NCBI RefSeq assembly: GCF_900187275.1
Contig: NZ_LT906458.1
Location: forward strand, 1,770,001-1,802,000
DNA from: Pasteurella multocida
GTDB lineage: Bacteria; Pseudomonadota; Gammaproteobacteria; Enterobacterales; Pasteurellaceae
Length of the DNA: 32,000 nt
Reading direction: 5' to 3'
The stretch's first letter is position 1; the number at the start of each line of letters is the position of its first letter. Below are positions 6,073 through 6,460 of this stretch, piece after piece. Both the position numbers and the translations under genes were made by a program. The notes beneath the pieces are model-generated. The model made no database searches. It saw nothing but the letters and a program-made list of their open reading frames with translations, and had not been told where the DNA came from.

Positions 6073-6460
6073 TTATTCTGTCTCTTTATGTTTCCTTCCC
6101 CATTCACACATAGCTCGCAAAACGGGCATCAGTGATTGTCCACGTGCAGTTAAGCTATATTCTACTTTAGGTGGAATTTGAGGATATTCTTCACGATGGA
6201 CCAAGCCATCTTTTTCTAATTCTTTTAATGTGGTACTGAGTGTTTTAAAGGAAATGGAACCAAGATAGCGTTTTAATTCGTTGAAACGGATCGCTGGTGG
6301 GTACGTAAATAACCAATATAAAATCATCATTTTCCATTTTCCATTTTCCATTTTCCATTTTCCATTTTCCACCAATTAAACTTAATGTATAGCCAAAGTT
6401 GGTATCCTTAATTTCTACTCCAGTATCAATTAAATAGCTGTCTTCATTTTCATTCATCAT
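6073..6460 (-). pseudogene. HxlR-family winged-helix transcriptional regulator, frameshifted inside a heptanucleotide repeat (candidate phase-variable gene, currently out of frame)
   Basis: The N-terminal part starts at the ATG at 6460 (SD AAGGA 4 nt upstream) and reads MMNENEDSYLIDTGVEIKDTNFGYTLSLIGGKWK. The C-terminal part is in another frame and reads KWKMMILYWLFTYPPAIRFNELKRYLGSISFKTLSTTLKELEKDGLVHREEYPQIPPKVEYSLTARGQSLMPVLRAMCEWG, with its stop at 6073. Joined, they give the canonical HxlR pattern (GGKWK..IL..L......RFNEL......IS.K.L...LKELE.DGLV.R..Y...PP.VEYSLT..G). The two ORF-track entries 6245..6553 and 6073..6375 overlap exactly at the repeat. Confidence 0.85.
6328..6371 (-). repeat. 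perfect tandem heptanucleotide repeat (GGAAAAT)x6 on the coding strand (CATTTTC on the + strand)
   Basis: Counted by hand: six complete CATTTTC units span 6328-6369, plus a 2-nt partial unit. The tract lies inside the HxlR coding sequence. Confidence 0.95.

Follow-up and report, generated by a model that had tools for sequence, protein, structure and literature searches.

Results

A heptamer array inside an HxlR-family regulator gene

We analyzed a 32,000-nucleotide stretch of Pasteurella multocida DNA (contig NZ_LT906458.1, positions 1,770,001 to 1,802,000), referred to here as the window, in which a perfect heptanucleotide repeat lies within the gene for a small transcriptional regulator of the HxlR family and leaves its two halves in different reading frames. 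Coordinates are window positions unless stated otherwise, and n denotes the number of repeat units. Two features are central to this study:

6329..6370, minus strand: perfect (GGAAAAT)x6 microsatellite (Tandem Repeats Finder, exact match)
6073..6460, minus strand: HxlR-family winged-helix regulator gene, frameshifted at n=6 (PF01638, match to 7bze, AlphaFold2)

The minus strand at 6329-6370 consists of exactly six perfect GGAAAAT units, in the context ...TTAATTGGT (GGAAAAT)x6 GATGATTTTATATTGG..., and Tandem Repeats Finder describes the array at 6328-6371 as having a period of 7, 6.3 copies, 100% matches and no indels. The same program found no other perfect tandem array in the 32-kb window, and a three-unit heptamer probe had an expected 0.00 matches in 100 dinucleotide-preserving shuffles of the window. 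Two overlapping minus-strand open reading frames (ORFs), 6245..6553 and 6073..6375, are both present in the ORF list. The N-terminal frame of the regulator runs from an ATG at 6460 to a stop at 6245-6247, and the C-terminal frame, which carries the DNA-binding domain, ends at a stop at 6073-6075. We assign the start to ATG 6460 (MMNENED...) because it has an AAGGA Shine-Dalgarno sequence and because GenBank-annotated orthologues, which start MNENED, agree with it; the TTG at 6553 in the mechanical ORF list is a wrong start. With six units, the DNA-binding domain is out of frame and the window contains no intact regulator ORF, so that the window carries an OFF allele.

The tract codes for residues G30-K31-W32-K33-M34 of the regulator (a 118-codon gene), repeated in shifting frames; adding or removing a single unit moves the frame by one position. 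When the gene was rebuilt in silico with n=0 to 12, a full-length protein was obtained only at n=2, 5, 8 and 11 (n = 2 mod 3). Such a protein carries (n-2)/3 inserted copies of ENGKWKM in the turn that connects helix 1 to helix 2. A TGA stop lies directly 3' of the tract when n = 1 mod 3, and at n = 0 mod 3, as in the window, the product is 71 amino acids (aa) long, with about 30 nonsense codons as a tail up to the stop at 6245. The n=1 state is a dead end with no repeat remaining. By conceptual translation, tract length is thus predicted to switch the gene product between full-length (n = 2 mod 3) and truncated forms. Programmed ribosomal frameshifting was considered and rejected; there was no sign of it, and in-frame and out-of-frame alleles are both common. 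As a separate observation, the repeat unit also provides a -35-like TGGAAA located 17 nt from a TATATT just 3' of the tract (6315-6343, minus strand). This promoter-like match (9/12) is kept at any copy number and is of a kind found at chance frequency in an AT-rich region.

An earlier reading of the window (the original prediction) had proposed that the minus strand carries six perfect GGAAAAT copies, that the two ORFs are halves of one HxlR regulator, that the frame is restored at n = 2 mod 3, and that the N-terminal frame at n=6 runs into nonsense and stops at 6245. The repeat search and the translations bear out these points, and the second is further supported by the reconstructed protein. 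With four units removed (n=2), the gene encodes a 119-aa protein that matches Pfam HxlR PF01638 with E = 2.5e-32 across profile positions 1-89 of 91, scoring 111 bits against a gathering cut-off of 20.8. Its nearest solved structure is B. subtilis HxlR (7bze; E = 6e-29), a formaldehyde-responsive activator, followed by YdzF, HypR/YybR, YtcD, YodB and QsrR, with E-values against solved HxlR/DUF24 structures ranging from 6e-29 to 3e-6. In an AlphaFold2 model of the n=2 protein (predicted local distance difference test score, pLDDT, 88), helix 1 comprises residues 20-28 and helix 2 residues 31-42, joined by a tight turn at G29-G30. The corresponding n=8 model (pLDDT 86) places the 14-residue insert in a beta-hairpin of moderate confidence and predicts the remaining winged-helix fold at pLDDT >90.

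Unit number varies between near-identical isolates

The original prediction had called for heptamer numbers to be tabulated across related strains. We fetched 45 P. multocida copies of the locus as DNA, counted the units directly, and aligned 5.1 kb of flanking sequence (2.4 kb on the upstream side of the tract and 2.7 kb on the downstream side). The 45 loci comprise n = 1, 2, 3, 4, 5, 6, 7, 8, 9, 10, 11, 12, 14 and 17, with no imperfect unit in any expanded array. Over the 5.1 kb, the window and six further sequences show no single-nucleotide polymorphisms (SNPs) and form haplotype 1, with n = 5, 6, 7, 8, 9, 10 and 11. A second group of 13 sequences with identical flanks (haplotype 0), which is 1 SNP from the window haplotype, has n = 1, 2, 2, 3, 3, 3, 4, 4, 5, 5, 6, 8 and 8, and a third flank-identical pair has n = 5 and 14. 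Variation is also seen within what appear to be single submission batches, with n = 5, 7, 9, 10 and 11 among assemblies with the adjacent accession prefixes JBPWW*/JBPWX* and n = 10, 11, 14 and 5 in JANJHC to JANJHF. Because n differs between loci whose 5.1-kb flanks are identical, the tract is a localized hypermutable site that changes by whole units. We infer that replication slippage (slipped-strand mispairing) is the cause of these changes.

One alternative, named by the original prediction itself, is that the count of six units reflects an artefact of assembly or sequencing, the gene being in fact intact. Short tandem repeats can be miscounted, and some deposited contigs stop inside the tract (partial proteins P0141, P0143 and P0144), but the length variation is not an artefact, because samples and assemblers that are independent of one another give the same lengths, complete genomes included: five loci have n=3, six have n=5, five have n=8 and three have n=11. 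The window length itself recurs in L007 (n=6), and a 42-bp array is much shorter than a read. We therefore consider a miscounted tract extremely improbable.

Protein clusters from deposited genomes show the same pattern. Intact proteins have lengths of 118 aa (n=2), 125 (n=5), 132 (n=8), 139 (n=11), 146 (n=14) and 153 (n=17), whereas split forms are deposited as ORFs for the C-terminal part (85, 92, 99 and 106 aa) and as N-terminal fragments that end within or just past the repeat. Both full-length and truncated classes thus occur among deposited genomes. The 118-aa (n=2) allele is dominant, being indexed in 2861 blocks of the collection, and each of the other alleles is found in one to twenty contigs. 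Taken together, the locus has the sequence and population features of a simple-sequence-repeat phase-variable locus, namely a perfect repeat with a unit that is not a multiple of 3 and unit-wise variation between near-identical isolates.

The array arose from the codons of a conserved motif

Comparison of n=2 alleles indicates how the array was born. At 8 of 10 sampled places with this allele, the motif is encoded by the imperfect sequence GGT GGG AAA TGG AAA ATG (GGGAAATGGAAAAT), a two-unit form GGGAAAT-GGAAAAT, on haplotypes that are 47-89 SNPs from the window. The other two places have the perfect GGT GGA AAA TGG AAA ATG and lie on the haplotype of the expanded alleles. Expanded or contracted heptamer arrays are found exclusively on the GGA allele. 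In their ancestral form, GGG AAA TGG AAA ATG, the Gly-Lys-Trp-Lys-Met codons make up an imperfect pair of units. A synonymous GGG>GGA change, which made the pair perfect, seems to have opened the way to expansion. The TGG (Trp) codon of P. multocida is also required for the repeat, and homologues mostly have GGKYKM at this position. Because the perfect n=2 form and all expansions sit on the GGA allele, the tract can be said to be born of the motif's own codons, as the original prediction had proposed; two units are the predominant state in the species.

The GGA allele may not have remained on a single background. One locus with n=17 (L028) matches the window exactly over about 380 bp (-333 to +46 relative to the tract) and has 71 SNPs in the remaining flanks, a mosaic that suggests that the mutable allele has been moved by homologous recombination.

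The closest proteins to the regulator are all from P. multocida, and the next relatives (67-73% identical) come from unrelated taxa, mostly Firmicutes. A few Proteobacteria are found among the relatives outside P. multocida, namely Cardiobacterium, Rahnella and Ventosimonas. No other Pasteurellaceae were among the matches listed, although the genome-scan patterns were built on GKYKM and are biased against GKWKM; this pattern hints at horizontal acquisition of the regulator. Two homologues from other organisms (P0010 and P0053) contain in-frame tandem duplications of the wing segment PQIPPKVEYSLTERGKSL, a further repeat-driven length change in the HxlR family.

Neighboring genes and a putative operator

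Three further features of the window bear on what the regulator might control:

6608..7150, plus strand: NADPH-dependent FMN reductase (flavodoxin-like fold), divergent, presumed target (Pfam FMN_red, E = 3.2e-27)
5526..6023, minus strand: PEBP/YbhB-family gene, 50 nt downstream of the regulator (Pfam PBP, E = 4.3e-30)
6475..6501, minus strand: operator-like element AAGTACGCAC-TTTTAA-GTTATATACTC (consensus shared by homologue loci)

The FMN reductase gene is divergent from the regulator and separated from it by a 147-bp spacer, within which the operator-like element lies 15-41 nt upstream of the regulator ATG. This arrangement is conserved. A gene for a flavodoxin-like NAD(P)H reductase lies no more than 1.5 kb from the regulator homologue at 57 of 80 loci, nearly always divergent and directly upstream, and all 7 neighbors sampled for a Pfam check were FMN_red or Flavodoxin_2. 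The element is conserved as well; 58 of the 80 homologue genes are preceded by a sequence that agrees with its consensus, AAGTACGCAC-N6-GT[G/T][C/A][G/T]ATACTT, at no fewer than 17 of 21 positions, about 50-105 nt upstream of the homologue match in loci L041-L120, whereas the best scores in control regions are mostly 10-13 of 21. The window element matches 17 of 21 positions. Its left half, AAGTACGCAC, is exact and occurs once in the window, and several homologues have the same right half, GTTATATACT; a search of the window with a strict palindrome consensus (up to 3 mismatches) gave no match. On the basis of this conservation, the 6501-6475 element is a putative operator through which the regulator probably controls its own operon and the divergent FMN reductase. 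Found with members of this HxlR subfamily in Firmicutes and in a few Proteobacteria, the element is apparently undescribed and is a likely operator.

Our first operator candidate, an imperfect 18-nt inverted repeat at 6538-6582 (TTTGGTAACATAACAAAA / TTTTGTCATCTTACCTAA) in the same intergenic region, was set aside in favor of the homologue-conserved element. The inverted repeat overlaps a promoter-like site of the regulator (ATGACA-18-TATGTT, 6573-6544).

The PEBP gene has a strong Shine-Dalgarno sequence (pairing energy -11.7 kcal/mol) and is probably co-transcribed with the regulator. The scan found no terminator-like site between the two genes. Promoter and terminator scans performed at chance level (8 promoter-like sites found, 5.6 expected). 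Neither the PEBP gene nor the DUF4153 gene is linked to the regulator homologue in any of the 80 loci, and a role for PEBP as a conserved target is thus unsupported. Rfam and tRNA scans of the window gave no matches.

Translation of out-of-frame alleles

The original prediction had also suggested that, at any copy number, the OFF state might yield an N-terminally truncated isoform instead of no product, in which case OFF alleles would make a regulator lacking helix 1 from an ATG within the tract and the switch would toggle two isoforms. The required start codons are present. Whatever the value of n, the ATG of the last unit shares the frame of the DNA-binding domain, as does that of every third unit upstream, and in the window these in-frame ATGs are at 6351, 6330 and 6327. 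At n = 1 mod 3, moreover, the TGA stop overlaps an ATG (ATGA) in the classic layout for termination-reinitiation, and GenBank annotators have called ORFs of 85-106 aa at this locus. However, anti-Shine-Dalgarno pairing at the tract ATGs is weak (-3.3 kcal/mol, whereas the native start has -6.1 and that of the PEBP gene -11.7), and at n = 0 mod 3, as at the window's n=6, ribosomes in the N-terminal frame would cross the tract ATGs as far as 6245. The product would also be without helix 1. In HxlR/DUF24 structures, helix 1 contributes to the dimer interface. The in-frame ATG stands, while these points make a truncated isoform improbable in our judgment.

Discussion

A candidate frameshift switch

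The original prediction put forward this gene as a candidate phase-variable regulator, and the unit variation and the coexistence of in-frame and out-of-frame alleles support that view at the genotype level. We consider it probable, from sequence comparisons, that a slippage microsatellite inside this HxlR-family gene constitutes a frameshift ON/OFF switch with a local regulon in one P. multocida lineage. In this model, replication slippage would change the number of units in the GGAAAAT tract. At n = 2 mod 3, the full-length regulator would bind the putative operator at 6501-6475 and, once bound, would control both the regulator-PEBP operon and the divergent FMN reductase. OFF alleles would then deregulate the FMN reductase and the regulator-PEBP operon. 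The sign of the effect could go either way, although derepression is more likely than loss of activation.

Nonetheless, several observations weigh against a switch that is adaptive. With n=2 set aside, about 31 contigs carry in-frame alleles and about 45-48 carry out-of-frame ones, giving an in-frame fraction of about 40% where 33% would be expected; the excess is not significant, and the contigs are non-independent. The case for reversibility comes solely from the spread of lengths on one haplotype. At the protein level, 0 of 63 homologues have an insertion at the turn between helix 1 and helix 2, and the in-frame expanded proteins, their AlphaFold fold notwithstanding, may be non-functional. 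In addition, all P. multocida alleles have Leu9 (codon at 6434-6436, minus strand) where the subfamily has a nearly invariant N-terminal Cys, shared by at least 90% of the 63 closest homologues; Cys108 (MCEWG) is the sole Cys left. The P. multocida regulator may thus have lost the thiol-sensing route that is usual in its subfamily. With respect to the thiol-based redox/electrophile subgroup (YodB/QsrR/HypR type), the regulator lacks the conserved N-terminal sensing Cys and has the linkage to an NAD(P)H flavin or quinone reductase.

The state of the locus in other isolates adds to these points. A second lineage with expanded tracts (L028 and L121-L124), recognized by a Thr>Ile marker, has n = 5, 8, 11, 14 and 17 together with OFF alleles. 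A +1 frameshift at approximately codon 31, joined by a second +1 in most isolates, makes its FMN reductase gene a pseudogene. In L121 and L124 the PEBP gene lies next to an insertion sequence and is cut short at residue 144, and in L123 it is deleted together with DUF4153; these lesions map to locus coordinates of about 2300-2850 and 3400-4500. This looks like decay of the whole locus, with the module being dispensable. Separately, a GGG-type locus (L020; CP026744.1) is frameshifted by a 16-bp tandem duplication, TGGGAAATGGAAAATG, that lies at the site of the tract (about 2985-3015 in locus coordinates) but is unrelated to heptamer slippage. This implies that loss of the gene is tolerated. Two further GGG-type loci, L014 and L015, have single-base homopolymer indels in the 5' half of the gene (about 2930-2960 in locus coordinates). 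Several neighboring genes are also fragmented in L015, and the indels in both loci look like sequencing errors.

These observations are what would be expected if the tract were a neutral microsatellite in a dispensable gene that is turning into a pseudogene. On that account, slippage and frameshifting would occur as described above, but expansion past two units would simply mean that the regulator is lost, after which tract length would follow a random walk with no functional ON state and no selected switching. The in-frame fraction near the neutral 1/3, in-frame inserts of 7 to 35 residues at a turn where no homologue tolerates them, the decayed neighbors of expanded tracts in the second lineage, the independent gene loss in L020, the Cys already gone from the species, and the rarity of expanded alleles (tens of contigs, against 2861 blocks for n=2) all fit such a history. 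Conversely, in the window lineage both regulator halves, the operator-like element, the PEBP gene and the FMN reductase are intact, with no second lesion in any of about 30 loci, and no further inactivating lesion was found in either half of the regulator in any perfect-tract locus, all of these giving the same halves on translation. However, this lineage is young (0-8 SNPs per 5.1 kb) and the result has little power and carries little weight. The AlphaFold2 n=8 protein is predicted to retain the winged-helix fold, and the tract, like those of classical phase-variable genes, lies within the first third of the ORF. We regard neutral decay as the less likely account, while giving it appreciable weight. 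The claim of the original prediction that this is a contingency locus and not a decaying pseudogene may hold; it is favored by the lack of a second lesion in either gene half and is weakened by the near-neutral in-frame fraction and by the target pseudogene in the second lineage.

A bolder version of the switch model is that the repeat has replaced a lost allosteric switch. With the sensing Cys gone, the regulator would no longer respond to chemical induction, and stochastic slippage would generate subpopulations in which the reductase/PEBP module is derepressed, amounting to a phase-variable regulon. We consider this rather unlikely. If it were true, the protein in charge of this small regulon would be a classical DNA-binding protein and not a methyltransferase, and the hairpins of the n = 5, 8, 11, 14 and 17 proteins, which grow with n, may give graded activity instead of an all-or-none response. 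The population data would then record the birth of a contingency locus, from an imperfect pair of units, through a perfect pair, to arrays of 1 to 17 units.

Implications

The locus is informative even while the adaptive and the neutral accounts are weighed. It shows a mutable repeat arising from ordinary motif codons by one synonymous change, and it provides a simple system, consisting of one regulator, one conserved operator-like element and one reductase, in which to ask whether such a switch is adaptive or tolerated. There is also a practical consequence, in that annotators split the gene into 'hypothetical' fragments, which leads typing and pan-genome studies to miscount tract changes as gene gain or loss. 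If the frameshift switch is adaptive, redox/electrophile detoxification in a veterinary pathogen would be subject to bet-hedging.

Comparison with known systems

To our knowledge, repeat switches are well known for surface and restriction-modification genes, few are found in transcription factors, and very few switches of any kind are documented in P. multocida. In the literature that we searched, there was no description of this P. multocida locus or of a repeat-switched HxlR protein; occurrences of GGAAAAT together with Pasteurella were primers, and no paper was found there for the accession numbers of the sampled loci.

Slipped-strand phase-variable genes are found in Pasteurellaceae and Neisseria, and the lic, lgtC and mod genes of Haemophilus influenzae are examples with tetranucleotide repeats (reviewed in PMC11868660). 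The P. multocida locus resembles these genes in having, within the first third of an ORF, a perfect intragenic repeat whose unit length is not divisible by 3, and in showing copy numbers that vary between near-identical isolates and shift the frame with each unit. In contrast to those genes, the P. multocida unit is a heptamer made of the codons of a conserved structural motif, the product is a cytoplasmic winged-helix regulator rather than a surface, lipooligosaccharide or restriction-modification gene product, and the in-frame states differ by 7-residue steps within a folded domain.

The nearest precedent in P. multocida is natC, in which an imperfect two-unit heptamer, TTAATAT-TTATTAT, gained a unit, causing a frameshift with apparent reversion, and for which the change in the 7-bp repeat was proposed to be phase variation (Omaleki et al. 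2022, PMC9176279). The two cases share the species and the gain or loss of a 7-bp unit. However, natC encodes a lipopolysaccharide glycosyltransferase and was seen with only 2 or 3 units, whereas the HxlR locus encodes a regulator and reaches up to 17 units.

The original prediction considered a repeat-switched transcription factor to be unusual. Unusual it is, but there are precedents, namely the poly-C tract of the regulator gene mga in group A Streptococcus (Lei et al. 2023, PMC10330708) and the bvgS frameshift in Bordetella pertussis (Stibitz et al. 1989), both cited in PMC11868660. Coding-repeat slippage toggles a regulator or sensor in these systems too, so that one mutable site governs a set of genes. 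Those repeats are homopolymeric and lie in the gene for a virulence master regulator or a sensor kinase, unlike the heptamer in the small HxlR-type regulator of P. multocida. The likely regulon of the latter, comprising the flavin reductase and its own operon, would be local.

Among HxlR/DUF24 regulators of known structure (B. subtilis HxlR, 7bzd/7bze; HypR/YybR, 4a5n; and YodB, 5hs7; and S. aureus QsrR, 4hqe), the P. multocida protein shares the PF01638 domain and the winged helix, and it shares with the subfamily the pairing with a divergent NAD(P)H flavin reductase gene. It differs from the subfamily in having Leu in place of the N-terminal Cys. The locus is thus an undescribed case of the known repeat-driven frameshift switches, and what is specific to it is that every stage of its birth, from motif codons to a 17-unit array, is visible in public genomes.

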